64,000 nucleotides of DNA, from IMG/VR virus record IMGVR_UViG_3300042695_000536, positions 8,285 through 72,284 of that record. One strand, 5' to 3'. Below the pieces are notes generated by a model. The model had not been told where the DNA came from, made no database searches, and saw nothing but the letters and a program-made list of their open reading frames with translations. This DNA is from a virus (lineage: Duplodnaviria > Caudoviricetes). Positions 6,659 to 20,529 of this stretch are shown here, piece by piece. The translations under genes and the position numbers were made by a program. Numbering within the stretch: the stretch's first letter is position 1; every line of letters starts with the position of its first letter.

Positions 6659-6755
6659 GTGACAGCCCTACCCCATATCTTTAAGGCGGGGGAGACAAAG
6701 GAGTATAATAGTACTATAGGGATAAACATCCTTGGTTACTAGAGAAAGATATAAC

Positions 6756-6941
6756 ATGAGTACTCCAATGTGCAAGACATGTTCAATAGAGACAAATAAG
6801 GCAGCATGGGCTAAATACCCAGATATGCTCGATCTCTGCAAAATGTGCAAATCCTTTCAACAATCAATTGAACATACCATAGATGCAGCAGATAAGGTGC
6901 GAAAGAAAGCTGCACAAATAGGCAGACAATTAGAGTCTTAA
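6756..6941 (+). CDS. Small Zn-binding protein
   Basis: CKTC...CKMC. Confidence 0.55.
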   Translation: MSTPMCKTCSIETNKAAWAKYPDMLDLCKMCKSFQQSIEHTIDAADKVRKKAAQIGRQLES

Positions 6942-7008
6942 AAGCTCTTACCCATTATATCCCCCCTCCTTTTATCTCCCTTGTATCAGCCTCCTAGAGG
7001 CTTATTTA

Positions 7009-7034
7009 GTGGAGTATTGTGGAGTAAAGTGGAG
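7009..7034 (+). promoter_or_regulatory. MraZ-type triple direct repeat (GTGGAG-N4)x3
   Basis: GTGGAG tatt GTGGAG taaa GTGGAG with exact 10-bp period in non-coding DNA. Confidence 0.6.
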
Positions 7035-7432
7035 AATCATACTATCAATTTAGATCCAAATACTATCATTATATATAGTTAAACATATCTATGTAATGGA
7101 ACGTTACCATTTGATGGGTCATAATGTCAATAGGGCCTATATAAAGCATATTGGCCAATATTTGTCAATAGATATTCCAGGAAATTTTTTTATTTGTTCG
7201 TAAAGAGCAATTTTGGCCCATATTTATGGCAAAAAATTATGTCTAATTCTGTATAATTTGTCTCATATAATGAGATATTCTATACAGATTTTGACAGATT
7301 TTATTCAATATGCATACAAATTCCAGCGTATTTTTACATGCGTCGTAAAGAAGAAATTTGGCCCATAAGATGGGCATACAAAAATGGGACATATAGCTAA
7401 TTAAAGCCATATGCCCCATAGGGGAAGTTATA

Positions 7433-7777
7433 TTAGAATGAATCTAGATCCATTATGTATTTGCTATCTCTTACTCTTGTTTCTTCAAGGGATTTAATAG
7501 TTAGGTTTCTATCCACCGCCCCGTATTTTGCCTCAATCATATCGTTGAGAGCATCAGCCAGAAGCAATCCTTCGGATGTGTATCCCTTGTCCCATTCTGA
7601 CTTTAATCTAAGGGAATTGTATTGGATAATATATCTAACTAGTTCCATTAGCCTGTCTTGGGTGTATAAGGTATGTTCAGTTGTTAATACATTTGCCATT
7701 ACGGCAGGGGAGAAGTTAGCATTGTTTAGATAGTCTGTTAGTTTTTCTGCTGCTTTGAATTCGTTCGCTTTAGCCAT
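7433..7777 (-). CDS. Hypothetical early protein
   Basis: ORF with own TGTCAG-N10-TATAAT promoter and AACGAAAGG RBS. Confidence 0.75.
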   Translation of the reverse strand: MAKANEFKAAEKLTDYLNNANFSPAVMANVLTTEHTLYTQDRLMELVRYIIQYNSLRLKSEWDKGYTSEGLLLADALNDMIEAKYGAVDRNLTIKSLEETRVRDSKYIMDLDSF

Positions 7778-7837
7778 TGAGTTCCGCCTTTCGTTTTGAT
7801 TATACCATTGACCACTGACATTTGTAAATGAAGCGAG

Positions 7838-7878
7838 GTTCCTCCCCTTTCCCGTTTTCCCACAGAGAGGAGGAACCC
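7838..7878 (-). terminator. Hairpin, likely terminator of the Lsr2-like gene
   Basis: GGTTCCTCC...GGAGGAACC inverted repeat. Confidence 0.5.
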
Positions 7879-7891
7879 CACACTTAGTTTA

Positions 7892-8044
7892 TTACTTGAC
7901 GTTCTTCTTGTCTGTGAAGACTACGCCCTCTTGTGCTGCCTTGCTGATAACGCCTAGAGCTGCAGCTGAAAAGCGGCCACGCTTGCCCACAGAAATTCCC
8001 TGGGTCTTGAGGTACTCACGAGTTGTTGTTGGTGTTGATGTCAT
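7892..8044 (-). CDS. Lsr2-like DNA-binding mini-protein (50 aa, not in ORF track)
   Basis: MTSTPTTTREYLKTQGISVGKRGRFSAAALGVISKAAQEG...; matches IRxWAxxxGxxVxxRGRI of the Lsr2 C-domain; GAAAGGA RBS and TTTACA-N17-TATAAT promoter upstream. Confidence 0.65.
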   Translation of the reverse strand: MTSTPTTTREYLKTQGISVGKRGRFSAAALGVISKAAQEGVVFTDKKNVK

Positions 8045-8190
8045 TTGTTTGATCCTTTCTAGATCTTTGTTATATATATTATATCCGAATTTCGGCGATT
8101 TGTAAATAGGTGCCGTAAAGCAAAATTTTTGCCCGTGCCCTTAGATTATGACCGTTATGTCCGAATTGTCCATAACGGCCCAACCTATCT

Positions 8191-8373
8191 TTATTCAGTT
8201 GTTAGTTCTTCTACTTGGTATGGCTCTATCTTATCTTTACGATTGGCACCCTTTTGCCATTCTTTCTTAGGTGCGGCTACTGCCTTGTACCATGCCTCAT
8301 CGCTGTCCTTGGCTTCTACTACAATGTAAAATTCCTGAATGGTGTCGCCATATACTTTAAACTGTTTAGTCAT
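8191..8373 (-). CDS. Hypothetical early protein
   Basis: ORF track; coupled to upstream gene. Confidence 0.6.
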   Translation of the reverse strand: MTKQFKVYGDTIQEFYIVVEAKDSDEAWYKAVAAPKKEWQKGANRKDKIEPYQVEELTTE

Positions 8374-8507
8374 AGTTCCACCTGTTCTATCTTGTCTTTA
8401 ATTAGTTTAGCAATGATGTTGTGTGCCTCGATGTTTTCTGTTTCGGACCCACCCCACAAAAGCTTTTGGGCTTTACTAAGTTGATCGTTTAAGTACTTAT
8501 CACTCAT
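8370..8507 (-). CDS. Hypothetical early protein
   Basis: Start trimmed to MSDKYL; overlaps neighbours. Confidence 0.55.
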   Translation of the reverse strand: MSDKYLNDQLSKAQKLLWGGSETENIEAHNIIAKLIKDKIEQVEL

Positions 8508-8826
8508 CTTCATCTTCGTCGTCCTCCTCTTCTTCATCTTCCTCAAACATTGTGTCCACAATGTATTCACGATTCATCATCCATTCAAGGACATCTTCGT
8601 TGTGCTGTTCGGCACCGTACTCCAGAGAGAACCCCATACCAGCCTCCACAGCCTCACAGAGGTGGCCCCACATGTCATCTAGGGTGCAGTTCTGCTTGTA
8701 GGTCTCATCCTCAAATATGTTGTTAATTGTTGACCAAGTCCACAACCAAACTAATGATAGACCTAGGTCAGTGCTGTCTAGAATCTCTAAACACTTGTTT
8801 AGTTTATCTTTATCGTCAGGCTTCAT
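8500..8826 (-). CDS. Acidic hypothetical protein
   Basis: ORF track; poly-D/E C-terminus. Confidence 0.7.
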   Translation of the reverse strand: MKPDDKDKLNKCLEILDSTDLGLSLVWLWTWSTINNIFEDETYKQNCTLDDMWGHLCEAVEAGMGFSLEYGAEQHNEDVLEWMMNREYIVDTMFEEDEEEEDDEDEDE

Positions 8827-9106
8827 TAGCAAACTCCAAATCTATTCTTGATTGAATTGCAAATGATAGTTCATATGTTAGTTGATATAGTTCGACTAGA
8901 GTATCTAGTCGTCCTTCACATTCTGTTCGGACCATAGAATCCATTGCCTCTTCAGACAACTCCTCCTGTGCTAATGCGTCCTTTAAATCTTGCTCGGCAA
9001 TTAGCATTAAGTTCTTTAGTTCTCCGTGCATTATATCTAATCCGCTAACACCCGCATTAACCAAACGCTGTAGGTGCGGAGGGAGCCCAATGTCTTCTTG
9101 ATTCAT
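8816..9106 (-). CDS. Hypothetical helical acidic protein
   Basis: ORF track; GAGG RBS. Confidence 0.7.
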   Translation of the reverse strand: MNQEDIGLPPHLQRLVNAGVSGLDIMHGELKNLMLIAEQDLKDALAQEELSEEAMDSMVRTECEGRLDTLVELYQLTYELSFAIQSRIDLEFANEA

Positions 9107-9309
9107 TATATTACCTCATAGTTCACTAGTGTTGATTCATTTAAGTTGTTTGCCCAATCAGGCTTTCCTTCTACCCAATCATATTCAATATCGATATCTC
9201 CTCCGCCTTCGGCAGGAGCACCAATTGTGATTACCAATTCTGTCCCGTCCTCAAAAAATATTTGTTCAACGGCGGAACGATAAGTAACTTCTCTAGATGA
9301 TATGTTCAT
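9106..9309 (-). CDS. Hypothetical early protein
   Basis: Own promoter (9334-9355) and AACGAAAGG RBS. Confidence 0.65.
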   Translation of the reverse strand: MNISSREVTYRSAVEQIFFEDGTELVITIGAPAEGGGDIDIEYDWVEGKPDWANNLNESTLVNYEVI

Positions 9310-9494
9310 TAATATACCCTTTCGTTATCAATCATTATATCAGTAGCCACTGACAAAATATGTTCCATAGTATCAATGGCACCCATATAATAACTATCTG
9401 ATTCGAAGTATTCATCTTCAGGAATAGGAATATTATTTCTAGCATCTTCTAAATCTTGTTCTAAACTAATCTTATGTATCTTTAGATACTCCAT
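9309..9494 (-). CDS. Hypothetical acidic protein
   Basis: ORF track; start uncertain (MEYLK). Confidence 0.55.
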   Translation of the reverse strand: MEYLKIHKISLEQDLEDARNNIPIPEDEYFESDSYYMGAIDTMEHILSVATDIMIDNERVY

Positions 9495-9817
9495 AAAATG
9501 TGATGACTTAGTCAAAATAACCCTCCGCCCAAAGCCCCTGGAGGAAGTCATTTGTTTTTAACAAGCCTTCATTTAATATTGACTTGTCCATTAAATCGGA
9601 CGGGGTTCTAAGATAAAATAACTTAGCATCATGTACTGAGTTAATCATCTCATCAAGATCATCTTTAGTATAACCTAGCATTCTATTGCCTCCATATATT
9701 TAATCATAGTATTAAGTGTTATATGAATGTGACAATCACAATCATCTGATGTATCTCTATCATCAAAATGGATTAAGTTGTCATCATAGATATAATCAAT
9801 TAGTTCTTGGCTGGTAA

Positions 9818-10030
9818 TCATAGGAGGAATTCATCTCCTTCAATATAACCATAGTACTCATTGTATGATTGTTTTAAGTTATCAGGAGCAAATTGCATGA
9901 ACATATATTCAGCATAATCGCTGCCCTCATCTAAATTTTTGCTGTTCCATTGTTCAAAGAGATGTTGCTCAATATCTACTTGAATTGCTCCAAGGATATG
10001 TTCTCCTACTGTATCTGTAAATGCTTCCAT
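9818..10030 (-). CDS. Hypothetical acidic protein
   Basis: Promoter 10071-10092 embedded in upstream gene; GAAAGG RBS. Confidence 0.65.
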   Translation of the reverse strand: MEAFTDTVGEHILGAIQVDIEQHLFEQWNSKNLDEGSDYAEYMFMQFAPDNLKQSYNEYYGYIEGDEFLL

Positions 10031-10764
10031 TATGCTTCCGCCTTTCTATATTCGGGTACTTTAGTGTCTAAGTATATCTTATGGGTCTGACAAATTGCTA
10101 CAGCCTCTAGGTCAGCATTGCCTAGCCAGTTGCAGTTGCCACAGATTTCACCGCAGTCATTGTCGCAGTATTCCATTTGGTCAGTTGCATCACAATCACG
10201 GCACATGTTATCGTATTCTGATTCTGATATAACTTCTCCACGGAGGAATTCCATTTCCCCACCCCAACCTGTTTCTTCTTCATATGATAAAGTAAATAGT
10301 AGTGTTGGGTATTGTGCAGATAGTTTAGAGATAGCACCAAGAGGTCGTGACCATGCAGTGTTAAAGTTGTAATGAACTACATAGTTCTCACCGTTTTCTG
10401 CTTCTTCAATAGTTGTATCAGGATACTTATTACCCTCGGCTACAGCAACATCCCACTTGGTTCCCCACTCACGCACATTAAAGTTGTACCAGTCATTGGT
10501 CTCAAACTTCATTGCCTGAGAAAAGTCGGTGGAACGAGGAGGCTGTCCATGATATACCTCATCAGTAATACCAGCATCTCTATAGTTATAGATATTATGA
10601 AAAGCAAAGATAGGATTAACATACTTAGTCTGCTTGACATCATATGATAAATCACCTACTGCAGTAATAGAATAAACAAATGGCTTATTCATTTGTTTGA
10701 TTAGAGATTTTACTTGCTCAGGATTACCTTCAATAGTTAATCCATTAAATACCCAATTTGGCAT
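10030..10764 (-). CDS. Api92/YubB (DUF1281) ferredoxin-like domain protein with C-terminal Cys cluster
   Basis: MPNWVFNGLTIEG...WYNFNVREWGTKWD...FNTAWSRP...YEEE.G..G; true start follows promoter and RBS. Confidence 0.8.
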   Translation of the reverse strand: MPNWVFNGLTIEGNPEQVKSLIKQMNKPFVYSITAVGDLSYDVKQTKYVNPIFAFHNIYNYRDAGITDEVYHGQPPRSTDFSQAMKFETNDWYNFNVREWGTKWDVAVAEGNKYPDTTIEEAENGENYVVHYNFNTAWSRPLGAISKLSAQYPTLLFTLSYEEETGWGGEMEFLRGEVISESEYDNMCRDCDATDQMEYCDNDCGEICGNCNWLGNADLEAVAICQTHKIYLDTKVPEYRKAEA

Positions 10765-10947
10765 TTTATATCCTTTCGTTGATATGTTCCAATTATACAA
10801 TGGACCACTGACATTTGGAATAGCAAATAGGTGTGTTTCACACCACATTTTCCAAGCTATGTGGTCAAGATCACACAAATTCCTGGGAAAATTAACTTGA
10901 CGTCGTAAAACAAACATGCTACCCTCAAGTCTTTGCGGGCAATAGAA

Positions 10948-10970
10948 AACCCCCAGCTATGCTGGGGGTT
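10948..10970. terminator. Intrinsic terminator-like hairpin
   Basis: CCCCAGC-TAT-GCTGGGG with adjacent A-tract (U-tail on - strand). Confidence 0.6.
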
Positions 10971-11092
10971 ATGAATATGGCTGCTGATTTCCAACGAAAG
11001 AAATAAACCGCTTTACTTAGCGCCTGGCCCTAAAGACTAATAGACGCACCATTTCATTTCCTATTAAAACCAGGACCAAAGTCCTAGTCTAA

Positions 11093-11458
11093 TTATACCA
11101 TAACTAGTCGACTGTATTTATCTACGAATGCTGCAAGGGACGAGGTAAACACTACCGTGCTCAGGTCCTCTTCATACAGTGTAAAAGTTTGATTGGACCA
11201 ATCAATAACAGGCACCTTATGCTCATTATCTCCTAATTGATTAATGTAGATACCCCAGCCTGTTTTTTCAGTCCAGTCTTCTCCAATTAGATTAGATATA
11301 GCAATGCGTGTTGCATATGATTCATCCTGCCAGCGAGGCTCTGCAGCCTGCACAGCATTGGCCAACTTGGCTAGCATATTATGCCCAGCCCAGTGTCCAT
11401 ATAGAAATAGTACATTCTCCTTGGAATCTCTGAATCCAAAGTTTGCTCTGTCGCCCAT
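11093..11458 (-). CDS. Conserved phage protein (MGxR...YxHW type)
   Basis: MGDRANFGF...FLYGHWAG. Confidence 0.7.
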   Translation of the reverse strand: MGDRANFGFRDSKENVLFLYGHWAGHNMLAKLANAVQAAEPRWQDESYATRIAISNLIGEDWTEKTGWGIYINQLGDNEHKVPVIDWSNQTFTLYEEDLSTVVFTSSLAAFVDKYSRLVMV

Positions 11459-11459
11459 T

Positions 11460-11669
11460 TTATTCCGCCGTTTCTAGTTGAGGGATTGCTTCTTCCGTTT
11501 TGTTTAATTCTATCACTTCGTATGCGACCTTGTCAAGGCCACGCTTGCTTGCGTTGTAGTGGTGACCGCAAAAGAAAAGCTCACCATCTACTAGTTTAAC
11601 CATATACATTGCTTGGGCTGTGCCACATTGGTCACATGCTATCCATCTTGTTAGATCTTCCATTGTCAT
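11460..11669 (-). CDS. Small Zn-binding protein resembling an actinobacterial CDxC...LxFCxHH family
   Basis: CDQCGTAQAMYMVKLVDGELFFCGHH. Confidence 0.65.
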   Translation of the reverse strand: MTMEDLTRWIACDQCGTAQAMYMVKLVDGELFFCGHHYNASKRGLDKVAYEVIELNKTEEAIPQLETAE

Positions 11670-11821
11670 AGTGCTCCACCTTCAATCATCTCAGAAAGAC
11701 GATCAAGGATCCAGGAATCAATGTCGTTGATATCAATCTCTGATAACTTTTCCATGATTTCATCACGGGCAAACTTATACCCATCGTCCCAACCATCTTT
11801 ATAGTCTGACATAATTTCTCC

Positions 11822-12025
11822 TTAATAACCTGTGGTTTCGTAGTCTGATATGTAAGATTCAGTTAAGTTATACTTATCACGAATTCTACTTACTTTCTCA
11901 ATACTACCAGTTCCAATGTTGAATGTCAACGGTGACATTGCTTGCGGGTCCAGCCCAATAATTTGTGCATCCCAATAGGCCATCTCCATGGATAGCCTAT
12001 CAGGAGCAGTCAACTCAAAATACAT
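11822..12025 (-). CDS. Hypothetical early protein
   Basis: ORF track; coupled TAATG junction. Confidence 0.65.
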   Translation of the reverse strand: MYFELTAPDRLSMEMAYWDAQIIGLDPQAMSPLTFNIGTGSIEKVSRIRDKYNLTESYISDYETTGY

Positions 12026-12699
12026 TAGCAGTTCTCCCTAATGTTGCAGATTTCTTGGTCAACAACTTCAATGTTGCCATTGTGTGAATCAGCATAAAGA
12101 GCATCTTCAATTTCTGAATCTAAGTCAAAATGAGTATCCTCAAGTAGGTTGACTGAAATAGTTCCGCTAACTTCAATAGATGCAGACCATTCAATCTCTC
12201 TAATTAATTCAATCTCAAGCGCTTCTGCAATTGCTTGCAAAGTTTCTTGGTCTTCTGAATCAGCATATGCCTCTGAAATAATATCTTTAACTAAGCCAAT
12301 CTTATTCTGTAAAGATGAGACTGCCTTAGAATTTGTGCGACCATTATGCAGTTCGTATTCAATGTTGCGAACTTTATCTGTAGCATATTCAGCATCCGAA
12401 TAACCACGGATTACTTTGTATGTAACTAATTGGTCAGGGTTGTACTTCTCTGCATCTGATAGAGGCAGGTTTTCTACTGTCATTCCGTCCATATTGCTTC
12501 CTTCTTTCGTTTGGTTTAAGGATGTAATTGTAGCATGCTCCACTGACACTAATGTGGTCTTACGGCCACACGGGCATGTGAGTTCTGTCACACCTGATGG
12601 AAAGCCAAATCCATCAGATGATGTTAATTGGATTAAACAATCACACTCATCTGGGTCACAGACAAATGTGTACACGCTTGATACTAGTTCGTTGGTCAT
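12025..12699 (-). CDS. Leaderless Cys-rich-N-terminus protein with nested in-frame start at 12492
   Basis: ATG 12699 is 7 nt after TATAAT; internal promoter 12527-12548 and ACGAAAGAAGG RBS precede Met at 12492. Confidence 0.65.
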   Translation of the reverse strand: MTNELVSSVYTFVCDPDECDCLIQLTSSDGFGFPSGVTELTCPCGRKTTLVSVEHATITSLNQTKEGSNMDGMTVENLPLSDAEKYNPDQLVTYKVIRGYSDAEYATDKVRNIEYELHNGRTNSKAVSSLQNKIGLVKDIISEAYADSEDQETLQAIAEALEIELIREIEWSASIEVSGTISVNLLEDTHFDLDSEIEDALYADSHNGNIEVVDQEICNIRENC

Positions 12700-12800
12700 G
12701 TACAGAATTATACAGGACCCCACTGACATTTACAATAGATTCCAGGGAATTTAAATGTGAGTCGTAACACACTTTTTGCCCCCTTAGCTTTGAGGGCGCT

Positions 12801-12877
12801 TGGCGATCCATAACGGACTTGAACCGTCGGCCTCTACCGTGACAGGGTAGCGCTCTAACCAACTGAGCTAATGGACC
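12801..12877 (-). tRNA. tRNA-Asp (GTC)
   Basis: GGTCCAT-TAGCTCAGTTGGTTAGAGC...CT-GTC-AC...GGTTCAAGTCC...ATGGATCG-CCA cloverleaf. Confidence 0.95.
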
Positions 12878-12924
12878 AAGAAAAAATGTGAGCAGTTTTA
12901 AATCTTGCTCAGGATTATTTTTAT

Positions 12925-13932
12925 TTAGAAAGCAGAAATCAATTTCTTGATTTTGTTTTTCTCAGCGGTTAGCACTGGGTCAAATCCTGATGCGCCAGCC
13001 ATAAGCGTTTCAGAATTTCCACGACCTGAGCGATAGTAATCAAGGCGTTCGGTGAGAGCATTAAACGCACCCCATTTAGTTCCCTTGATGTTAGCATTAG
13101 TTGGTGAGTTATGGTAAAGGTCATCAAGTAGCACGACCTTATTCTCCCATTTAGTTAGCGCAACTTTAGCAGCATCATCAGCAGGCTTTGGATAAATTGT
13201 GTGAATTAACTTTGAGAATTCAGCATCAGTAATTGACTGAGAATAAAGTGCTTGCGCTTCCTTCTCGAATTCATCAAAGTAACCAAGAGCAAGCCCAAGA
13301 GTTTCACGAGCAACTTGAATGCGACCTTCAACAGATTGCGTATGACGAATCTTGAAAGATTGCTTAGCGTTACGCATGGCAAGATTCAATGTGTTTTGGC
13401 ATACAACACGAACAGGAGTAACAGCAGCCTGAACAGCAACTGACCCGTCATGTGATGTCCATACAATTAAATAGAGTTTAGTTTCATCGTTGGCACCTTG
13501 TGGGTCAAGAACCATTGTGCGAGGAATATCAACAGTGCCGAATACAACTTTGCCCTTTTTCAATGAGCCAGCAGATTCCCAACGGCAGTCAGCGTTCGCA
13601 TCATGAATAGCATCAGCGAATGCGAATAATTCTTCATTCTGTACAGGCTTGTAACGCTTGCCAACAGTGGCAAGAACATCAGTTCCCTTATTGAATGGAT
13701 TGTCACGAATGACAAGAGATGCGGTAGAGACATCATTCCAAGATTCTGGAATGTGCTCAGTGATTGGAGATAGACGAACATTCCAATTTGCCAACTTTGC
13801 TTCTTCAAGCATTAGGGCGGTAGTAACTTCTTCATCTTTTGTGAAGATGCGATTTGCTAGGTTGTGCCAAGCAGGTGCGCCACGGAGAGCGAAAGCAACT
13901 TCGCCGTTTTCCATTTCTAGATTGTGAGCCAT
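12925..13932 (-). CDS. DUF932/DUF945 (LGT_TIGR03299) family protein
   Basis: MAHNLE...PAWHNL...VGKRYKPVQNEE.F.F...ESAGSL..GK.VF...SHDGS....TPVRVVCQNTL...HT...GTKWGAFNALTE..D. Confidence 0.9.
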   Translation of the reverse strand: MAHNLEMENGEVAFALRGAPAWHNLANRIFTKDEEVTTALMLEEAKLANWNVRLSPITEHIPESWNDVSTASLVIRDNPFNKGTDVLATVGKRYKPVQNEELFAFADAIHDANADCRWESAGSLKKGKVVFGTVDIPRTMVLDPQGANDETKLYLIVWTSHDGSVAVQAAVTPVRVVCQNTLNLAMRNAKQSFKIRHTQSVEGRIQVARETLGLALGYFDEFEKEAQALYSQSITDAEFSKLIHTIYPKPADDAAKVALTKWENKVVLLDDLYHNSPTNANIKGTKWGAFNALTERLDYYRSGRGNSETLMAGASGFDPVLTAEKNKIKKLISAF

Positions 13933-14132
13933 ATATTTTTTACCTTTCGTTTGATTAGTCATAAGTATAACAGGTGCCACTGACATTGTCTAGGATTAGA
14001 TACAATATGTCCGAATTGATCCATGTGATTAATCTCACAAAATTCCAGGGATATCCACAGGCAGTCGTAACCCTGTGGATAACCCCTTACCTTTACGGGC
14101 CAGCTGCAGGATATGCAGCTAGTGTTAGATCT

Positions 14133-14387
14133 TTACAGACCTAACTCATCCCTGGTTAATTGATTCTTTCGATTGAAGTTAATAACTTCGGCGGGAAGAT
14201 AAAGAGCAGTTGTCTTAGTCTTCTTCAATGTATCATACACATAAGCACGAACATCACCAAAAAAGTTACGGCGATTAGAGAATGCTAATTCAGTTAAGTA
14301 TTCCTTATCAACGCCTTGCTCTGAATAAATTGTTACATCATTTAACTTGTTCTCATCATAGATTTCTACTCTGAAACGATTTTTCAT
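14133..14387 (-). CDS. Hypothetical early protein
   Basis: ORF track; AACAAAGG RBS. Confidence 0.7.
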   Translation of the reverse strand: MKNRFRVEIYDENKLNDVTIYSEQGVDKEYLTELAFSNRRNFFGDVRAYVYDTLKKTKTTALYLPAEVINFNRKNQLTRDELGL

Positions 14388-14458
14388 TTTGTTGCCTTTG
14401 TTAGTAGTTGTCCCAAAAGGGAGAGCAGTTTGGCGACATACTCAGGTCGTTGGATTAT

Positions 14459-14881
14459 TTACAGATAACGAGCAACCGCATTGTAAGTGCTGGTATTAAC
14501 AACTTCCTCATCTGTCATTTTAAGAATACGAATTGCGTTTTCCATTTCCTCTTTCATCTCATTGTATGAGTGGCGGTGGATTACTTCGTAGTCCTTCTCA
14601 GGTTCAGCAGGGAAGTTTCCTTCCTTTGTGATGATGTCAAAATCAACATTGAGAGTGTTGTTCCAGTTGCGATAGTTTGTGCGTAGGTTTTCAGCCTTTG
14701 AGAAGTTAGCAATAGCCCACTTTCCAATTTCCTTTTTCCACGCTTCTACCTGCTTGTTATACTTTGCTTCGTTTGCTTCTTGTGATGCGAAGTCTTTATT
14801 TAGTTGTGCCAACTTTGTTTCCAAAGCCTTGATTACTCGCTGAGTTGGGATTTTCACCGAGATTGCTTTTCCTCTAGCCAT
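14459..14881 (-). CDS. Hypothetical coiled-coil early protein
   Basis: Own promoter and RBS. Confidence 0.8.
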   Translation of the reverse strand: MARGKAISVKIPTQRVIKALETKLAQLNKDFASQEANEAKYNKQVEAWKKEIGKWAIANFSKAENLRTNYRNWNNTLNVDFDIITKEGNFPAEPEKDYEVIHRHSYNEMKEEMENAIRILKMTDEEVVNTSTYNAVARYL

Positions 14882-14967
14882 TTGTTTCCTTCTTTCGTTG
14901 TGGGTTGGGTTGATGAAGTAATTATAGCAGGGAGGTCTGACATTTCTGCGACCCCCCTGCCTTTAGA

Positions 14968-15150
14968 TTATACGCCTAGTAGTGTTTGAGCGGATACGGA
15001 AGTCCAACGAGTTTCCTTGTTTGGCATTTCCAATAGCACACGCACCGAGCCAGATGTTTGTGGGTGGATTTCTTTAATCACACCTGTTTTCTTTGACTTA
15101 AGGGTAGTGAATAAATCGCCTACCTGATACAACTTGTCGTTGATTGTCAT
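14968..15150 (-). CDS. Small SH3/KOW-like protein
   Basis: YQVGDLFTT...TGVIKEI...VRVLLE...RWTSV; own promoter. Confidence 0.6.
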   Translation of the reverse strand: MTINDKLYQVGDLFTTLKSKKTGVIKEIHPQTSGSVRVLLEMPNKETRWTSVSAQTLLGV

Positions 15151-15247
15151 TTATTGCCTCTTTTCTTTGTTAGGTTGGTAATTATAGCATTGGGGTCTGA
15201 CATTAGTCTAGCCCTATCTCATTATTTGAGAAAGTTATTGTGTGACC

Positions 15248-15511
15248 TTAGTCACTTTCAGGTAGCCAAGCGTCTAAGTGGTGCTGTTCGATAATAGCCC
15301 ACGCTGGCGCATGAGAGTCACCCTTATAAGATACGCCTTCAGGCATTTCGATCAACTTATTATAATCCTCATCATAGTAAGCATCAATAGCCTCGATACA
15401 AGGCTGTACCATAGAAAGTGGGACGGGCGGGTAATGATTACCCTGTAAGTGATAACCTAGTGCTACCTCTAAATCTAATTCAGTTAAATCTAATGCTGTA
15501 TTGTATCCCAT
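15248..15511 (-). CDS. Conserved hypothetical phage protein
   Basis: HLQGNHYPPVP...IIEQHHLDAWL. Confidence 0.75.
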   Translation of the reverse strand: MGYNTALDLTELDLEVALGYHLQGNHYPPVPLSMVQPCIEAIDAYYDEDYNKLIEMPEGVSYKGDSHAPAWAIIEQHHLDAWLPESD

Positions 15512-15714
15512 TATTCTGCCACCTTAAGAATTGCGTATGAGCCATTAGCATTTATCTCATCAAGAATTGGTTGTAGTCGGCTACCGACTAAATCTTTTAG
15601 CATTGACTCTAGCATAAAGATACGAGTATCCTCATCAAGCATTTCTATTTGCTTAGTTACTGGATGGCCGTCCTTAAACTCTGTTACGAACTTCAGGTTG
15701 TGTTCTATTCTCAT
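15511..15714 (-). CDS. Hypothetical early protein
   Basis: Own promoter and AACGAAAGG RBS. Confidence 0.7.
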   Translation of the reverse strand: MRIEHNLKFVTEFKDGHPVTKQIEMLDEDTRIFMLESMLKDLVGSRLQPILDEINANGSYAILKVAE

Positions 15715-15993
15715 TTGTTGCCTTTCGTTGTTGGTATAAGAGTATTATAGCCTATGCCACTGACAAATTGCTCAACACGCCCAAGCTTTATCTAATTTAT
15801 TTTGTGATTAATCTCACAAATTCCAGGGGGTTGTGGATAACGCCCGTAACCCTGTGGATAACCCCGCAGCTTTACGGGCGGGCAGCGTCATTGATCAAAT
15901 TTATTTTTATGTTTTATTTTTCTAAAATATTTTTTCTTATTGCGTACAGGTTGCGCCGCATTACTGCGACGCAATTCCTGTATGCGTTTAACT

Positions 15994-16185
15994 TTATCTC
16001 GAAGTGAATTTTGTGACATGGTATCCACACGCTTTATGAAATCGGTTTACATCAAATCGCTCATTATCTTTTGCGAACATAACTGCGAAATCATTTACAA
16101 TTTTAGAAAATAAAGCAGGGTGCGCCTTATCACTAGCAAAGTTTAAAATTTCTGCTACTGCGACATAATCTTTTCTTGTCATCAT
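15994..16185 (-). CDS. Small phage protein (MTRKDY...DNxRFD..RF..ACG type)
   Basis: Similar to the C-terminal half of 42829..43293. Confidence 0.75.
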   Translation of the reverse strand: MMTRKDYVAVAEILNFASDKAHPALFSKIVNDFAVMFAKDNERFDVNRFHKACGYHVTKFTSR

Positions 16186-16388
16186 TTTGTTACGACCTTT
16201 CGACCTTCACGATAAAATGTTTTTGTGTACATCTTGCCAGTTGGCGTCATTAAATTTACAGTTGAGTATTCGTTAGCAAATCCCCAATCGGTAAATGAAA
16301 GAAATGCGGTGAACGCTTCTAAAGCGTCATCATAGTTTTTATTCCAATGGATAGGCTTGCTATCGTAGGAAATTGTTATTTGGTACAT
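16182..16388 (-). CDS. Small phage protein (DWGFA motif)
   Basis: Similar to the N-terminal half of 42829..43293. Confidence 0.75.
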   Translation of the reverse strand: MYQITISYDSKPIHWNKNYDDALEAFTAFLSFTDWGFANEYSTVNLMTPTGKMYTKTFYREGRKVVTK

Positions 16389-16528
16389 TAGTCATTTTCC
16401 CCGTTCTTAAATAAAGAGCCATCTTGACAATCGCAAGGCTCGCAATCAAAATCATTATCATCACCAAAAAAGATTACGCCATGACCTAAGCAATCTTGGC
16501 AATCTATTGTTAATACTGAGTTAATCAT
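16388..16528 (-). CDS. Small Zn-ribbon protein
   Basis: Manual translation CQDCLGHG...CEPCDC. Confidence 0.55.
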   Translation of the reverse strand: MINSVLTIDCQDCLGHGVIFFGDDNDFDCEPCDCQDGSLFKNGEND

Positions 16529-16692
16529 TAGTGTTGTTCCTCGCAATCTTTGTCATAGTCAAATCCGCAAAAGTAGCAACCCATAAATTCTAGGTGTTCG
16601 ATACAGTAATACTTAAATTGACTTTCATCACAACAAAAATGTTGCTCGTCTGCGATTTCATAGAAATCGGTTTTGTCGATTATGTTTAACAT
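16528..16692 (-). CDS. Small Cys/His-rich protein
   Basis: Manual translation HFCC...CIEH...CYFC...C; own promoter and RBS. Confidence 0.6.
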   Translation of the reverse strand: MLNIIDKTDFYEIADEQHFCCDESQFKYYCIEHLEFMGCYFCGFDYDKDCEEQH

Positions 16693-16744
16693 AGTTTTCC
16701 TTTCGTTTGTTTATTCTGTAATTATAGCGGATAGCACTGACAAA

Positions 16745-16954
16745 TTAGTCAGATACCCTAACCGCAATGGTTGCCCAAAAGTTTTTGATCCCACGGGTTG
16801 GGCGAACCTCGATAGCGTAAGCCTCTAGGTTTTCTCCGTACCAAATTGCGTCACGCTTTGTTGCGTATACGATAGTTCCCTCGTCATGGCGAGAGTGTGA
16901 GCGATAGTGTTTTCCCTCTAAGAGGCTTTCGATAGTGTATGCTTTTGCTGACAT
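16745..16954 (-). CDS. Hypothetical early protein
   Basis: Own promoter and RBS. Confidence 0.7.
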   Translation of the reverse strand: MSAKAYTIESLLEGKHYRSHSRHDEGTIVYATKRDAIWYGENLEAYAIEVRPTRGIKNFWATIAVRVSD

Positions 16955-17279
16955 GAGTTGTCACCTTTCGTTTGTTGATACTGGCAATTATAGCCTATGC
17001 CACTGACATTTTCACATTACTGGCGAGTAATTCCACATTTTGAGACGCTCAAGTCGTGTGATAAAAATCACAAAATCTCGGGCGTGTCGCAAATTCCAGG
17101 GGTTGTGGATAACCCCCGTAACCCTGTGGATAACCCCGCTCTTTTGCGGGCGCATCAACTTTTGTCAAGTCGACACGCCGCTGTTTATTCGAAATCTTTA
17201 AAAATTTCTTCAAGCTTTAGAATTTGCTCATCTGTTAAATGATCAATTTCAATTGCTTTTTCAAATCCAAAAAAATCCA

Positions 17280-17474
17280 TTATTCGTTTTCCATTTCTGC
17301 TAAATAATCTTCATGTTCAATTAGTCCGATTGAAAAAGCGATTGGGTCGCAACATTCCAAAATTTCGGCGGGAGTAAAAGTAGAGTAACCAATTTTTACA
17401 GTAGGGTAAACATCATTTAGTAAATCAATAAAGCTTTCTTTAATTTCTAAATCTTTTTCGAAATCTGATTTCAT
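17280..17474 (-). CDS. Small acidic phage protein
   Basis: F.DLLNDVYPTVKIG..TF.PAEIL..CDPIAF. Confidence 0.7.
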   Translation of the reverse strand: MKSDFEKDLEIKESFIDLLNDVYPTVKIGYSTFTPAEILECCDPIAFSIGLIEHEDYLAEMENE

Positions 17475-17769
17475 TCGCTTAACTCCAATTCGGTATAATC
17501 AACAACAATAAAATCAAGTCGCTCTAATGGAACAACCTTTAACCATGATAAGGCAGACTCAAAATCATCTGCCTCAACAGTAACGGATAAATCAAAATTA
17601 AATACAGCCATTTAGTTAGTTTCCTTATCTTTTAGTATGTTTAGAATAATCTCTAATTGCTTAGTGCTTAGTAACGCTTGAGCGCAACCCCACTTAAAGG
17701 CTAAATCCATTTCGCCATAGTGCTTTTTAGCAAGAGTTGTTATTTCTTGCGTTACCTCAAAATTAGTTT

Positions 17770-17955
17770 TCATTTAGTTAAACTCCAATCGGAATAAAAT
17801 GGTAAGCGGTCATAGTCATCATAGAAATAGACTCTATCTATGTTCTGCTCGCATGTTTCGCAGAAAGTGTATTCGACATCTACACCCATGCCATAGGTAG
17901 TAGATACGCTCTCCATGTGTGGAGTGTGTGTATGTGTATTTGTTAGTGTAGTCAT
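17770..17955 (-). CDS. Small His/Cys protein
   Basis: HTPH...FCETCEQNI; own promoter. Confidence 0.6.
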   Translation of the reverse strand: MTTLTNTHTHTPHMESVSTTYGMGVDVEYTFCETCEQNIDRVYFYDDYDRLPFYSDWSLTK

Positions 17956-18308
17956 AGTGACCACCTTTCTTTTTCGTTATGGTAGTATTTTACCACGGGG
18001 GTCTGACATTTATCTACCTACTAGCCAGTAATTCCAAATAATGAGACGCTCAGCCTATGTGATAGTAATCACAAAATCTCGGGCGTGTCGCAAAACCTGG
18101 GGGTTGTGGATAACCCCCGTAACCCTGTGGATAACTCCCGCAAGTACTTGCGGGCCAGCTTGACAATGTCAAGCCGACACGCCGTTAGGCTAGTGTGAGT
18201 TAGCCCACTCTCGGTAATCCGCTACGATCTCACGCCATACAAGGCGGAGCATAATTAGGGCGGGAATACCAATACCTAATTGGACTAGTGTAGTAAGTAG
18301 TCTATTCA

Positions 18309-18500
18309 TTACTCTCCCCATGTATCATTAGTATTAGTAGGCAAGCAATTGCCTAGTGTTCGATTATTCTTTACTCTTTTATAAATCTTATAACCGATAA
18401 AAACAACGGAGGACAAGATAAGGAAAGCCCATGATAGGGATAAGTAAATAAAATCACCCATGTCAAGCATAAAGCCGTATTCATTTAGTTCGATAGTCAT
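18309..18500 (-). CDS. Small membrane protein
   Basis: Single TM helix followed by basic residues; GAGG RBS. Confidence 0.6.
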   Translation of the reverse strand: MTIELNEYGFMLDMGDFIYLSLSWAFLILSSVVFIGYKIYKRVKNNRTLGNCLPTNTNDTWGE

Positions 18501-18776
18501 TACTTATTTACCTCTACTTCTCTAATGTTGTAAGTGAAACCCTTACCTAGTTTATTTAGTTCGTTCATTACTGTTAGCAATTCATCTGCGCTAGTAGCCT
18601 TGTTATTAACGCTTAGTAGTTGGCTACCTTGCCAAAGTGTGTAAGTGATTATCATTAGTAAGTATCCTCTACGCCTAGTTCATAGGACTTGTTTAGTAGT
18701 GTTAGTAGTTCAGGTGTTACAGTAAATCCGTTAGCCTTAGCCATGTCGGCTAGTGTATCCATTGGGTACATCATTA

Positions 18777-18959
18777 TTAGTTCTCCCATGTTAGTTGGTA
18801 AAGTTTTGCTAGTGCCTCATCATCTGAGTCATCAAATTCATCTAGTGGAGGTTGTTCCTCATCTACCTCATCAAGGTATGCGTATGCGTCTGCGACATCT
18901 GATTGGATAGTATCCCATTTAGATACGCTATTAGTTTCGTATGAGTATGCGTATGACAT
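18777..18959 (-). CDS. Small highly acidic protein
   Basis: D/E-rich; GGAG RBS. Confidence 0.6.
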   Translation of the reverse strand: MSYAYSYETNSVSKWDTIQSDVADAYAYLDEVDEEQPPLDEFDDSDDEALAKLYQLTWEN

Positions 18960-19165
18960 TATTTATTCATCTCCTTAGCGATTGTATCGGACTTACGCAA
19001 AGCCTCTAGGGCTATTGCTAGGGAGGCAAGGCGTTGCGCCTCTACCATTTGCTTGTATTCATCTAGTGTCATTTATTCTGACCTTTCGTTGTTGTTATTC
19101 TGTAATTGTAGCATGGGGGTCTGACAAATTGGGGAGGTTGGGCTAGCGTGTCGCTGTGAGGTGTG

Positions 19166-19336
19166 TCACATGCCTCTCTTGAGGCGAATAGCCTCGACCT
19201 GTGCTAATTGCTCAGGTGTAGCGTTGCGGAAAGCCTGTACGCTCTCTCTAATCCAAGGTGACTTAGCCATAGCCTTTTCGTGAGCGATAGCGTTTCGCTC
19301 TTGTTGTTCTTTTCTAATTCGTTCTAGTGTATTCAT
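19166..19336 (-). CDS. First gene of the - strand early cluster, hypothetical
   Basis: Promoter 19372-19393 and ACAAACGAAAGG RBS before MNTLER. Confidence 0.65.
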   Translation of the reverse strand: MNTLERIRKEQQERNAIAHEKAMAKSPWIRESVQAFRNATPEQLAQVEAIRLKRGM

Positions 19337-20055
19337 TAGATGATTACCTTTCGTTTGTTTGTTATACCTTAAGCATAGCATGGGGGTCTGACAAATGTCT
19401 AATCCAAAATGCGTATAATTCGGACATTGTGAGATGTATCACAAAAAAATCGTGTGAGATGAGTCACAAATGACCATTCATTATGGGCGCACTATCCGAA
19501 ATGTCCGTTTTGCCTAAATTGTGTATCATACATGTAAAAAATATATTAACATTTTCTTAAATCTGAAAAAGCAGTCAACTAGAATAAATGGCGGGGAATA
19601 TGGTAAGATACTACTTGATCAACATAGCTGTTATATAAGCTATTGACTTTGGTAAAAGTAAAATGCTACACTTAGTTTGCTTTGTGGGGGGCTTACCCTG
19701 AAACTCAATATGTACCAGATAACATCTGTGGATATATGTTCCAGGAATTGCTTTCTCTATCTTTCCAAAAAGAAAAAATTTGGGGGGTAGGGGGGCTTTC
19801 CTAAAATCTAATATACCCAGATAAAAAGTTAAAAAAGATAAAGAATATAAGACAAATAGGTGATAAGTATGTGTAGAGAATGTGGAAACTGTTCAAGACA
19901 ACATACTAGAACGATAGATGATTCTATGGATGAAGTCCTAGATTCAATTTTTAAAAAAACGGGGGTAGAACAGTGAAACTTCTTTTGGCTATAGCCATAG
20001 TAACTGTAATGACTTTTACCCTTGGTATCATATATCAGATAATAGGCTAATATAA

Positions 20056-20130
20056 GGGCCTATAGCTTAACCTGGTTAAAGCAATTGTCTTATATGCAAT
20101 CGACTTTGGGTTCAAATCCCAATAGGCCTA
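20056..20130 (+). tRNA. tRNA-Ile (TAT anticodon), no encoded CCA
   Basis: GGGCCTA/TAGGCCT acceptor stem, ATTGT-CT-TAT-AT-GCAAT anticodon arm, TTGGG-TTCAAAT-CCCAA T arm. Confidence 0.85.
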
Positions 20131-20256
20131 CTTGGAGGAAATATGGATAATGTAAGAGTGCCAGATGAATGGCCAAAAACTAAGAAGGCTAAATTCCTTC
20201 TTGTATGCTTTGGCGTTATAGTACTATTTCTTTTTTTTAATTTATAGATCTACTTG

Positions 20257-20270
20257 GTTTCACGTGAAAC
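20257..20270. promoter_or_regulatory. parS palindrome GTTTCACGTGAAAC
   Basis: Perfect 14-bp match to the chromosomal ParB-binding site; intergenic. Confidence 0.7.
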
Positions 20271-20529
20271 ATGGAGTATAATATTACTATGCTAGCCTAT
20301 GATGTTCCTCTTTCCGCCCTCCTTTTTATCGTATATGCTGGTGTACCAGCAGAAAATAATATAGGGCCTACTGAGGAGCAATTGGACGAGTATATAGCGA
20401 TGTTAAAAAGAATTCAGGACTATGGTCTCTAATTTTCGGCTCACTTTTCGCCGCACTTTTTAGGACATTGAATCTGTAGAATATGTAGGGTATAATATAC
20501 TTATTCTTAAAAATTAAAGGAGATACACG

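Follow-up and report, generated by a model that had tools for sequence, protein, structure and literature searches.

The non-coding DNA between the small genes of a lake-water phage contains sequences that resemble the binding sites of several master regulators of its actinobacterial host, which raises the question of whether these sites are real and what they are used for. The window analysed is a 64,000-nucleotide stretch of a Caudoviricetes record (IMGVR_UViG_3300042695_000536, positions 8,285 to 72,284). An earlier note had described positions 6950-20270 of this window as a mosaic of sites for DnaA, ParB, MraZ, WhiA (GACAC) and CRP/GlxR with PafBC-type promoters, and had proposed that this early or first-injected region either senses the state of the host or acts as a DNA decoy for these proteins.

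Motif content of the small-gene block

The observation made in the earlier note is confirmed, with corrections to one count and to the description of the region as non-coding. Counts over the 64-kb window were compared with 100 dinucleotide-preserving shuffles. The DnaA box TTATCCACA is present in 7 perfect copies, all on the minus strand, against 0.69 +/- 0.85 expected and a maximum of 3. The CRP-type palindrome TGTGA-N6-TCACA is present in 8 perfect copies, not 7 as the note had it, against 0.08 +/- 0.27. The promoter pattern TGTCRG-N10-TAnnnT gave 17 hits against 1.06 +/- 1.14, of which 15 (TGTCAG-N10-TAnnnT) lie on the minus strand of the block and two lie in a repeated coding stretch at 32.1-32.3 kb. 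The 9-mer CGACACGCC is present in 4 perfect copies, forming two inverted pairs, plus 2 copies with one mismatch, i.e. 6 hits against 1.82 +/- 1.22. One MraZ-like triple repeat and one parS-like palindrome were also found, and all these motifs are far above chance except parS, which is a single site. None of the DnaA, CRP or CGACACGCC motifs occurs elsewhere in the 72,284-bp contig.

With regard to the coding content, our own ORF map indicates that 76.7% of 6950-20270 is coding or tRNA, whereas only 3,108 of 13,321 bases are intergenic. The region comprises roughly 41 small minus-strand ORFs. All 7 DnaA boxes, all 4 perfect CGACACGCC, 6 of 8 CRP palindromes and 12 of 15 promoters are located in the short spacers (Table 1).

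Table 1. Coordinates of the features identified in the window (strand of each feature in brackets where it differs from the strand column)
Feature	Coordinates	Strand	Content	Basis
Small-gene block	7433..19381	-	About 41 small ORFs plus tRNA-Asp (12801-12877), all read leftward; DUF932 (12925-13932), DUF1281_C protein (10030-10765), DUF7455 (11460-11669), Lsr2-type mini-protein (7892-8044)	ORF map; Pfam; tRNA search; pairwise match to the Yaboi Lsr2-like protein
Promoters	7799..19393	-	15 x TGTCAG-N10-TA(t/c)(a/g)(a/c)T, 22-mers at 7799-7820, 9334-9355, 10071-10092, 10792-10813, 12527-12548, 12707-12728, 13964-13985, 14921-14942, 15181-15202, 15744-15765, 16721-16742, 16987-17008, 17987-18008, 19105-19126, 19372-19393	Pattern search against shuffles; PMC8635444
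Cassette A, upstream of DUF932	13964..14120	-	Promoter 13964-13985; ATGTCCGAAT 14007-14016; CRP palindrome 14024-14039; inverted DnaA-like box ATATCCACA 14051-14059 (+); DnaA box 14074-14082; hairpin 14101-14120	Motif searches; footprint over 57 unique relatives
Cassette B	15744..15880	-	Promoter 15744-15765; GGCGTGTTG-like box 15773-15781; CRP palindrome 15803-15818; DnaA boxes 15832-15840 and 15853-15861; GC hairpin about 15862-15880	Motif searches
Cassette C	16987..17179	-	Promoter 16987-17008; palindrome TTGAGACGCTCAAG 17040-17053; CRP palindrome 17057-17072; CGACACGCC 17081-17089; DnaA boxes 17104-17112 and 17125-17133; GC hairpin about 17134-17152; inverted partner of the 9-mer 17171-17179 (+)	Motif searches
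Cassette D	17987..18183	-	Promoter 17987-18008; CRP palindrome 18058-18073; CGACACGCC 18082-18090; DnaA boxes 18105-18113 and 18126-18134; GC hairpin and TTGACA..TGTCAA palindrome about 18137-18174; inverted 9-mer 18175-18183 (+)	Motif searches; 86% identical to C over 120 nt
Cassettes E and F, without DnaA boxes	19105..19468	-	E: promoter 19105-19126, CGACACGCT 19145-19153, CRP palindrome 19155-19170. F: promoter 19372-19393, CRP palindromes 19428-19443 and 19453-19468	Motif searches
CRP-type palindrome in coding sequence	12577..12592	.	28 nt upstream of the internal promoter 12527-12548	Motif search; ORF map
MraZ-operator-like unit	6988..7043	+	Terminator hairpin 6988-7002; GTGGAG-N4-GTGGAG-N4-GTGGAG 7009-7034 (10-bp period); -10-like CATACT 7038-7043; triple repeat overlaps a putative rightward promoter	Sequence; hairpin search; 38 of 80 related loci, repeats invariant, spacers variable
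parS-like palindrome	20256..20271	.	GGTTTCACGTGAAACA, one mismatch to the 16-mer, perfect 14-bp core; 6 nt upstream of a TATAAT on the plus strand	Sequence; kept in 5 of 28 relatives covering the site

Architecture of the cassettes and its conservation

The motifs are arranged with a fixed grammar. In the direction of transcription, each cassette comprises a hairpin that ends the previous unit, a slot for upstream sites filled either by two perfect DnaA boxes exactly 21 bp apart or by GGCGTGTCG boxes, a perfect CRP/GlxR-type palindrome, a promoter with TGTCAG at -28..-23 and TAtAAT at -12..-7 but no consistent -35, and a conserved leader with the start codon. All 15 promoters are on the coding strand, and most are followed by the leader AACGAAAGG and an ATG.

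This grammar recurs in 80 related lake-phage contigs, in which the promoter pattern occurs 1157 times on the gene strand and 4 times on the other, TTATCCACA occurs 348 against 58 times, and 488 CRP palindromes are present. As the relatives are close (DUF932 is 91-99% identical), part of this conservation is shared descent. In five 96-100% complete relatives of 115-117 kb, 14-17 promoter patterns are found in one 9-11.4 kb block and 0-2 elsewhere, and 5-7 of their 6-8 DnaA boxes are in or beside it. The spacing within DnaA-box pairs is 12 nt in 99 of 109 pairs. The distances from the CRP palindrome to the promoter in 304 unique cassettes cluster at 27-29 nt (62), 37-39 nt (107), 46-49 nt (73), 59 nt (6) and 70-71 nt (5), i.e. 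on a ladder of about 10.5 bp, although a class at 33-34 nt (41 of 304) is off-phase. In some cassettes, GGCGTGTCG replaces the DnaA box in the same slot.

The GC hairpin that precedes the boxes shows compensatory changes by eye (cccgc/gcggg, cccct/agggg, ccctc/gaggg), and in cassettes C and D the 9-mers GGCGTGTCG and CGACACGCC could close a long stem. This could suggest that the modules are structured RNA elements (terminator or processing signals, or small RNAs) in which the boxes are parts of stems and loops. However, the potential stem GGGGG..CCCCC around the second box is not maintained, as the last 4 spacer bases on its 5' side vary freely, while both 9-mers stay fixed and the following ACCCC does not change in compensation. 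Moreover, boxes occur in either orientation in some cassettes, and no Rfam family other than two tRNAs matched. We consider this reading very improbable.

Comparison with host and phage systems

The promoter geometry equals the published PafBC motif tGTCgg(N10)tA(N3)T, a -26 element plus a -10 without a -35, with an invariant GTC triplet (PMC8635444). PafBC is an actinobacterial activator that uses this architecture to adapt sigma-A RNA polymerase once single-stranded DNA has activated it. The pattern TGTC[AG]G-N10-TAnnnT is present upstream of recA in 22 of 27 published sampled Actinomycetia genomes, including both phage subtypes (..GTGG, ..GACC), and adjacent WYL pairs are present in 6 of 6 small genomes. 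Nevertheless, position 5 of the -26 element is A in all 15 phage promoters, where the mycobacterial consensus has a weakly conserved g, and 7 of 15 also have a weak -35-like hexamer at 17-18 nt. In contrast to the host repair genes, the pattern here heads 15 phage transcription units, with a near-perfect TATAAT as the -10.

The CRP palindromes resemble class I CRP/GlxR-activated promoters, in which a TGTGA-N6-TCACA site lies upstream of the core promoter at distances stepping by about 10-11 bp. If the -26 element is placed as in the PafBC paper, the site centres fall near -64.5, -74.5, -84.5, -95.5 and -106.5, which is about 3 bp off the E. coli classes, and the partner promoter is a -26/-10 hybrid. 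One Crp-type protein is present in each of 5 of 5 small genomes examined.

With regard to DnaA, the oriC of one small Actinomycetia genome (G044) has 4 perfect TTATCCACA, including a direct pair at 21 bp with the same 12-nt spacer, and another (G006) has 7 perfect boxes directly followed by TGTCGG-N10-TATACA ahead of chromosomal dnaB. However, host arrays have 4-7 boxes with mixed spacing and no CRP palindrome, and the exact 12-nt-spaced pair was found in only 2 of 61 class genomes searched. The presence of an identical pair in a host-like oriC could indicate that the pairs mark DnaA-dependent phage replication origin(s), activated by transcription from the neighbouring promoters. Pairs of TTATCCACA phased at 21 bp and larger box arrays are also common in viral contigs of many GC classes, with at least 117 stretches holding them, and of 87 pairs in the first 80 loci, 66 lack the cassette context. 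This origin hypothesis appears unlikely, as three to four separate two-box sites lie within about 4.5 kb, each locked to a promoter and a CRP site, some cassettes use GGCGTGTCG instead, and no box array or unwinding element distinct from coding sequence was seen.

The MraZ-like repeat of the phage, GTGGAGtattGTGGAGtaaaGTGGAG, is similar to the direct GTGG(A/G/T)G repeats at a 10-bp period found upstream of mraZ in host-like genomes, e.g. GTGGAGgagaGTGGAGtacaGTGGGG in G043 and GTGGAGtaaaGTGGCG in G060. In the phage, it is located after a terminator and before a -10-like hexamer that points into about 400 nt without an obvious ORF.

The earlier note drew a loose parallel with the injection-stop region of phage T5, and it is indeed loose. 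T5 has 8 boxes in one large untranslated region, with a proposed role in stopping injection (bioRxiv 10.1101/866236), whereas here the boxes are pairs inside 3-4 separate promoter cassettes of a gene-dense block. In both cases, perfect host DnaA boxes are conserved in a phage region, which in the cultured cluster-BE relatives of the present phage lies in a long terminal repeat (PMC5764925).

The terminal-repeat gene block of Streptomyces cluster-BE phages (Stanwilliamsviridae, e.g. Yaboi) has the same layout, with DUF932 and many small leftward genes, one promoter per gene or pair, hairpins, a repeated upstream motif and an ACGAAAGG-type leader. However, Yaboi uses a -35/-10 type promoter (TGTTGC..TAGACT) and a different upstream word (GCCGCCCCGG in 13 of 26 upstream regions), and has none of the PafBC, DnaA, CRP or CGACACGCC motifs in its homologous block.

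Which proteins may read the cassettes

Profile searches for Bac_DnaA_C, HTH_Crp_2, WYL, ParB_N, MraZ and Sigma70_r2 found no such domain in 5 of 5 phage records searched each time, which supports the idea that the sites are read by host proteins. An actinobacterial host is backed by the presence of WhiB in 4 of 4 near-complete relatives and by kinship to the cluster-BE phages, although a genome scan with the phage RNR hit only phage contigs binned into MAGs of many phyla and did not identify the host. The WhiB encoded by these phages could also act on sigma-A instead of PafBC.

Alternatively, the motifs could be operators for phage-encoded DNA-binding proteins of unknown family, among the many unannotated small ORFs, WhiB or the Lsr2-type mini-protein, their likeness to host sites being convergence or partial mimicry. 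In favour of this, 20 of the 25 block ORFs scanned in Pfam had no credible match, and the flanks of the DnaA boxes (GGnTTACG, ACCCC) are nearly as conserved as the boxes, so the recognised unit may be larger than a DnaA box. Furthermore, GGCGTGTCG is strongly repeated in the phages (121 + 337 copies in 80 loci) yet is not enriched in five host-like genomes (4 vs 14, 11 vs 13, 8 vs 20, 40 vs 48 and 38 vs 33 against the control). As this 9-mer is the conserved unit, the assignment to WhiA made in the earlier note is unsupported. We regard the operator hypothesis as possible but doubtful, since three different motifs equal, letter for letter, the consensus sites of three conserved host proteins, the same words occur at host recA, oriC and mraZ, and no phage homologue of any of the six protein families was found in the phage records searched.

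A probable sensor of host state rather than a decoy

The interpretation given in the earlier note is only partly supported. The identities of the PafBC, DnaA, CRP and MraZ motifs each match what small Actinomycetia genomes use at recA, oriC and mraZ, and of the two functions proposed, sensing of the host state fits the strict position, strand and helical-phase grammar relative to promoters. In contrast, nothing specific supports a DNA decoy as the purpose, although it remains possible as a side effect because the phage carries more perfect CRP sites than whole host-like genomes do. The parS site is poorly conserved, and the first-injected position remains a suggestion.

If titration were the main function, the amplified phage DNA would act as a sponge for DnaA, CRP, MraZ and ParB, stalling host replication, division and catabolite control. 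The sites are perfect consensus, and the phage has 8 perfect CRP palindromes, whereas five 1.4-1.8 Mb host-like genomes have 0-2 each, and 7 perfect DnaA boxes against 13 in the whole of G044. However, a sponge needs no fixed strand, order, spacing or helical phase relative to promoters, yet all are kept. In addition, there are only 6-8 boxes per genome, boxes are swapped for another motif in some cassettes, and parS is mostly absent in relatives. Titration as the main function thus appears unlikely.

We consider that the spacers of this 12-kb block are best explained as host-factor-dependent promoter cassettes, not free-standing decoy DNA, with a probability of roughly 0.55. The analysis establishes the motifs, their grammar, conservation and restriction to this block, the absence of phage homologues of the binding proteins in the records searched, and the use of the same words at recA, oriC, dnaB and mraZ of small Actinomycetia genomes. 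Binding and transcription themselves are inferred from sequence alone, namely that host PafBC switches the 15 promoters on when infection or damage produces single-stranded DNA, that cAMP-CRP and DnaA tune a subset from upstream positions, and that an unknown factor reads GGCGTGTCG. Replicated phage DNA would then also soak up these proteins, as a side effect. In this view, the phage probably uses the host's own DNA-damage, replication and nutrient signals to switch on these small genes.

Genomic context and relatives of the phage

The sequence analysed, bases 8285-72284 of a single 72,284-bp viral contig, has a GC content of 32-42%, and the contig is rated 60% complete by CheckV. It encodes a portal, a head protease, a capsid-family protein, tail fibres, a ribonucleotide reductase (RNR) and a very long ORF with a tape-measure domain. 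Megablast of the region against 50,697 phage records gave no match. At the protein level, the nearest named relatives are the ~131-kb Streptomyces cluster-BE siphophages (family Stanwilliamsviridae), with a portal that is 56.5-58.6% identical and a DUF932 protein that is 49-50% identical. In those phages, the DUF932 gene lies twice per record, in the ~11-kb direct terminal repeat, within a run of small leftward genes (PMC5764925). Among 280 candidate IMG/VR stretches, 265 encode the same DUF932 protein, and the best 80 loci (91-99% identity), which include contigs of 110-117 kb, were kept for comparison.

With regard to the environment and the host, 18 lake-water DNA runs, stored as contigs, hold 81-97% of the sampled words of window 12000-20500. 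Contigs of four metatranscriptome runs from relatives lie over much of the block, one run (X19) covering 30 of 30 bins, but this was not counted as expression, as DNA carry-over cannot be excluded and contigs show no transcription starts. Four of four near-complete relatives encode a WhiB-family protein, which is treated as a marker of actinophages (PMC10202952). The host is therefore very probably a freshwater actinobacterium. A search of genome contigs with the phage RNR returned 25 loci, nearly all of them phage contigs (57-96% identity) binned into MAGs titled as Bacteroidia, Saccharibacteria, Brevundimonas, cyanobacterium, Aquiluna, archaea and others, which looks like bin contamination by phage DNA and says nothing about the host.

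Putative regulatory motifs in the gene block

Every motif listed in the earlier note is present, and all but the parS-like palindrome, which is a single site, are far above chance; the observation is confirmed and sharpened. There are 7 perfect copies of the DnaA box TTATCCACA against 0.69 expected, 8 perfect copies of the CRP/GlxR-type palindrome TGTGA-N6-TCACA against 0.08 expected, and 4 perfect copies of the 9-mer CGACACGCC. The pattern TGTCRG-N10-TAnnnT has 17 matches against 1.06 expected, fifteen of which are in the block and on its coding strand. None of the DnaA, CRP or CGACACGCC words occurs anywhere else in the 72-kb contig. However, the region is not mainly non-coding. By our own ORF map, it holds about 41 small minus-strand ORFs and a tRNA and is 76.7% coding, the motifs sitting in the 3,108 intergenic bases. 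An Rfam search at E <= 1 found only the two tRNAs of the window and four sub-threshold chance hits. The coordinates of the features are listed in the table.

Coordinates of the features (window positions unless another record is named)
Feature	Position	Strand	Observation
Promoters with a long upstream cassette	13985, 15765, 17008, 18008	-	Named by the first T of TGTC
Promoters with one or two CRP palindromes only	12548, 19126, 19393	-	Named by the first T of TGTC
Inverted box	14051		Inverted in place within its cassette
GTGGAG triple	7009-7034		Three repeats at a 10-bp period; MraZ-operator-like
Region downstream of the MraZ-like promoter	7050-7432		About 380 nt without a convincing ORF; conserved TGTCAATAG words and a 44-nt repeat (7198-7241, 7343-7386) with small hairpins; could be a non-coding RNA or a terminator zone
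parS-like palindrome	20257-20270		Perfect 14-bp core GTTTCACGTGAAAC
ATGTCCGAAT / ATTCGGACAT	14007-14016, 19412-19421, 8158-8167		Recurs between the CRP site and the promoter, in either orientation; conserved upstream of DUF932; another candidate binding word
234-codon ORF with two promoters	12527-12729	-	One promoter 7 nt before an ATG at 12699 (leaderless-type start); an internal one at 12548 with a leader and an in-frame ATG, suggesting two nested products
50-residue ORF	7892-8044	-	Matches the first 40 residues of the Yaboi protein (gp8) annotated as Lsr2-like DNA-bridging protein (48% identity, pairwise E = 3e-6); no Lsr2 domain found by Pfam, so only the pairwise match supports it; may be a stand-alone Lsr2-type DNA-binding module
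Repeats in the divergent region	19686-19825	+	Two copies of a G-run plus ..TCAATATGTACCAGATAA-like repeat before the plus-strand genes
Plus-strand -10 elements (gnGTATAAT)	20272, 20490	+	Plus-strand genes seem to use -10-only promoters without TGTCAG
tRNA-Asp(GTC)	12801-12877
tRNA-Ile, anticodon TAT	20056-20131	+	The window has two tRNAs; the cultured BE relatives carry 43-48 (PMC5764925)
Tape-measure ORF	54530-64000	+	More than 3,157 codons with a PhageMin_Tail domain; runs off the contig end; very long for a siphophage tape measure
Accessory enzyme cluster	624-1903, 2597-3397, 21366-22016; locus L082 (G000:C1) 486-8121		Subtilase, ferritin-like, radical SAM/SPASM, a cupin/JmjC-like protein and five 2OG-Fe(II)/Asp-Arg-hydroxylase-type oxygenases; looks like a peptide-modification set carried by a phage
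Terminal-repeat block of Streptomyces phage Yaboi	Yaboi record (L001) 900-11500		Own cassette: hairpin, GCCGCCCCGG, AAAAGATCTTGA, TGTTGC..TAGACT promoter, ACGAAAGG-type leader
DnaA-box array of host-like genome G006	L141 (G006:C41) 6162-6402		Seven perfect TTATCCACA in one orientation, then TGTCGG-N10-TATACA, ahead of dnaB and downstream of rpsF-ssb-rpsR-rplI

Architecture of the putative promoter cassettes

Read on the minus strand, each promoter, as inferred from sequence, is TGTCAG, ten bases, then TA(t/c)(a/g)(a/c)T, followed about 15-30 nt later by the leader AACGAAAGG and an ATG. All 15 block promoters fit the 22-nt PafBC motif tGTCgg(N10)tA(N3)T with its invariant GTC triplet (PMC8635444). 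A scan for sigma-70-type promoters showed no enrichment (52 against 41.6 +/- 5.9), although 7 of the 15 have a 4-of-6 hexamer at 17-18 nt. Across relatives, the long cassette carried by four of the promoters is stereotyped. It comprises, in order, the stop codon of the previous gene, GGCGTGTCG, a TTGACA..TGTCAA palindrome, a GC hairpin, TTATCCACA, a 12-nt spacer, a second TTATCCACA, ACCCCTGGAATT, TGTGA-N6-TCACA, often CGACACGCC located 17-18 nt before TGTCAG (59 of 77 unique cases), and the promoter.

The spacer is 12 nt in 99 of 109 pairs. In 60 unique cassettes, the two 9-mers, the first eight spacer bases (GGnTTACG) and the following ACCCC are conserved, while the last four spacer bases vary freely. 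As the ACCCC does not follow those changes, the tempting hairpin GGGGG..CCCCC around box 2 is not maintained, and an RNA-hairpin reading of this box was rejected for lack of compensation, as judged by eye and by column information rather than by a formal covariation test. In contrast, the GC hairpin upstream does show compensatory variants by eye. In some cassettes, GGCGTGTCG occupies the very slot of the first DnaA box, again followed by TTACG, and in others the boxes are inverted in place, as in the window and in L183, one of the IMG/VR viral stretches. Inferred from sequence alone, these are the marks of separate protein-binding words placed in slots. The cassettes differ from the T5-type injection-stop array, which has about 8 boxes in one large untranslated stretch of a terminal repeat, as the boxes come here as pairs in 3-4 cassettes of a mostly coding block.

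The distance from the end of the CRP palindrome to TGTC was determined in 304 unique cassettes. It is 18 nt in 1 cassette, 27-29 nt in 62, 33-34 nt in 41, 37-39 nt in 107, 41 nt in 1, 46-49 nt in 73, 59 nt in 6, 70-71 nt in 5 and more than 250 nt in 8. The main classes, at 28, 38, 48, 59 and 70 nt, step by 10-11 bp and account for 253 cassettes, and the resultant length is 0.68 at a period of 10.5, without correction for relatedness of the sequences. With TGTCAG placed at -28..-23, as in the PafBC structure paper (PMC8635444), the site centres fall near -64.5, -74.5, -84.5, -95.5 and -106.5. A protein that must face RNA polymerase would explain this ladder, whereas a sponge for host regulators, as proposed in the note, would not.

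Conservation in related phages

In the 80 loci, the promoter pattern occurs 1157 times on the gene strand and 4 times on the other, and TTATCCACA occurs 348 against 58 times. There are also 488 CRP palindromes and 458 copies of the 9-mer. A footprint over 57 unique sequences upstream of DUF932 shows conserved islands exactly at DnaA box 1, the CRP palindrome, ATTCGGACAT, the promoter and the leader, whereas the 3' end of the preceding gene is poorly conserved. In five 96-100% complete relatives, the promoter pattern forms one block of 14-17 copies within 9-11.4 kb, with 0-2 elsewhere and 0-3 in the reversed-pattern controls, and 5-7 of their 6-8 perfect DnaA boxes lie in or next to that block. 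The GTGGAG triple is invariant in 38 of 80 loci, while its spacers vary. DnaA-box pairs as such are common in viral contigs of many kinds, so boxes alone are not new; TTATCCACA pairs with a 12-nt spacer, often within arrays of 3-6 boxes, occur in at least 117 viral stretches of IMG/VR with locus GC from 23% to 64%. The distant cultured relative Yaboi keeps the layout but uses other words, with GCCGCCCCGG in 13 of 26 upstream regions and the same ACGAAAGG-type leader, and has none of the present motifs.

The parS-like palindrome is a true parS word, but it is kept with at most 1 mismatch in only 5 of 28 relatives that cover the spot, and it recurs in a second context in a few others. When up to 2 mismatches were allowed, 58 of 71 hits were one coding-sequence word inside DUF932, and these were dropped.

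Occurrence of the motifs in host-like genomes

The phage records contain no match to Bac_DnaA_C, HTH_Crp_2, WYL, ParB_N, MraZ or Sigma70_r2, with 0 of 5 records in each search, four or five of them at least 96% complete. On the host side, we sampled 61 Actinomycetia genomes reached through one Aquiluna-titled MAG, seven of which are unpublished and enter only the overall tallies. Of the 27 published genomes examined, 22 have TGTC[AG]G-N10-TAnnnT upstream of recA, including TTGTCAGTGG.. and CTGTCGGACC.., the two subtypes seen in the phage. Adjacent WYL-protein pairs of about 320-345 residues are present in 6 of 6 small genomes, and one Crp-type protein is present in each of 5. Perfect CRP palindromes are rare in these genomes, with 0-2 each, and the eight of the phage are therefore unusually strong sites as judged from sequence.

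The host-like genome G044 (1.5 Mb, locus GC 48%) has four perfect TTATCCACA in its dnaA-dnaN spacer, two of them a direct pair with the same 12-nt spacer. That exact pair pattern was found in only 2 of the 61 genomes, both small and of lower GC. The second case is G006, in which the array of seven perfect boxes is followed 19 nt later by the PafBC-like core and the chromosomal dnaB gene, so that the host side itself combines DnaA boxes with such a core. Upstream of mraZ, 4 of 4 host-like genomes that have the gene show GTGG(A/G/T)G repeats at a 10-bp period, with a full triple in G043 and pairs in the others, which matches the phage triple.

Two assignments made in the note are weak. A perfect parS core was found in only 1 of 5 host-like genomes and not in G044. 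The reading of CGACACGCC as a WhiA site has no support. Although GACAC lies inside it, the conserved unit is nine bases, occurs in both orientations at fixed slots, and is not enriched in five host-like genomes against the reversed control. Its binder may be a phage protein.

Proposed mechanism and significance

The cassette grammar, its conservation and its match to host words are established by the sequence analysis. Binding of the host proteins, the dependence of transcription on PafBC and the steps that follow are inferred. In this view, host sigma-A polymerase would not be able to use these promoters, which appear to lack a consistent -35, until PafBC, activated by single-stranded DNA (PMC11804915; PMC8635444), bridges the -26 element. 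Infection, host DNA breakdown, replication intermediates or sunlight damage would supply that signal. cAMP-CRP bound on the correct helical face, and DnaA on the paired boxes further upstream, would raise or lower a subset of units, and the GGCGTGTCG sites would add another input. The MraZ-like triple would control a separate rightward promoter at the far end of the block. Once the genome is amplified, the perfect sites would also draw these regulators away from the chromosome, which we consider a side effect rather than the purpose.

The interpretation given in the earlier note is partly supported: sensing of the host state is retained, the decoy function is unproven, and the proposal that the region is injected first remains a suggestion. 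A more far-reaching possibility, which we consider unlikely, is that a virulent lake actinophage has wired a whole block of about 40 takeover genes to the host's single-stranded-DNA alarm by giving all 15 of their promoters the PafBC '-26 plus -10' design, so that the host's own damage or anti-phage signal becomes the phage's go signal. Super-consensus DnaA, CRP and MraZ sites would first gate these promoters according to replication, nutrient and division state and, after genome amplification, would sponge those same master regulators.

Phages that depend on single host factors are known. A phage block whose every promoter copies the PafBC sigma-adaptation design, and stacks it with phased CRP, DnaA and MraZ-type sites, would be something else, namely a first case of a virus plugging into the actinobacterial LexA-independent damage response. 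Literature searches for PafBC or RecA-NDp together with phage terms listed no paper describing this, although part of the results was dominated by papers without the word PafBC, and supplementary PafBC regulon tables might list phage or prophage targets. The cassettes give a compact, conserved and directly testable set of natural promoters, with 22-nt cores and 150-nt cassettes, which could be used to study sigma adaptation, combinatorial control and phage timing in abundant but hard-to-grow freshwater Actinomycetia. The comparison also shows that related phage lineages, the Streptomyces BE phages, keep the cassette layout while swapping the words to suit the host.
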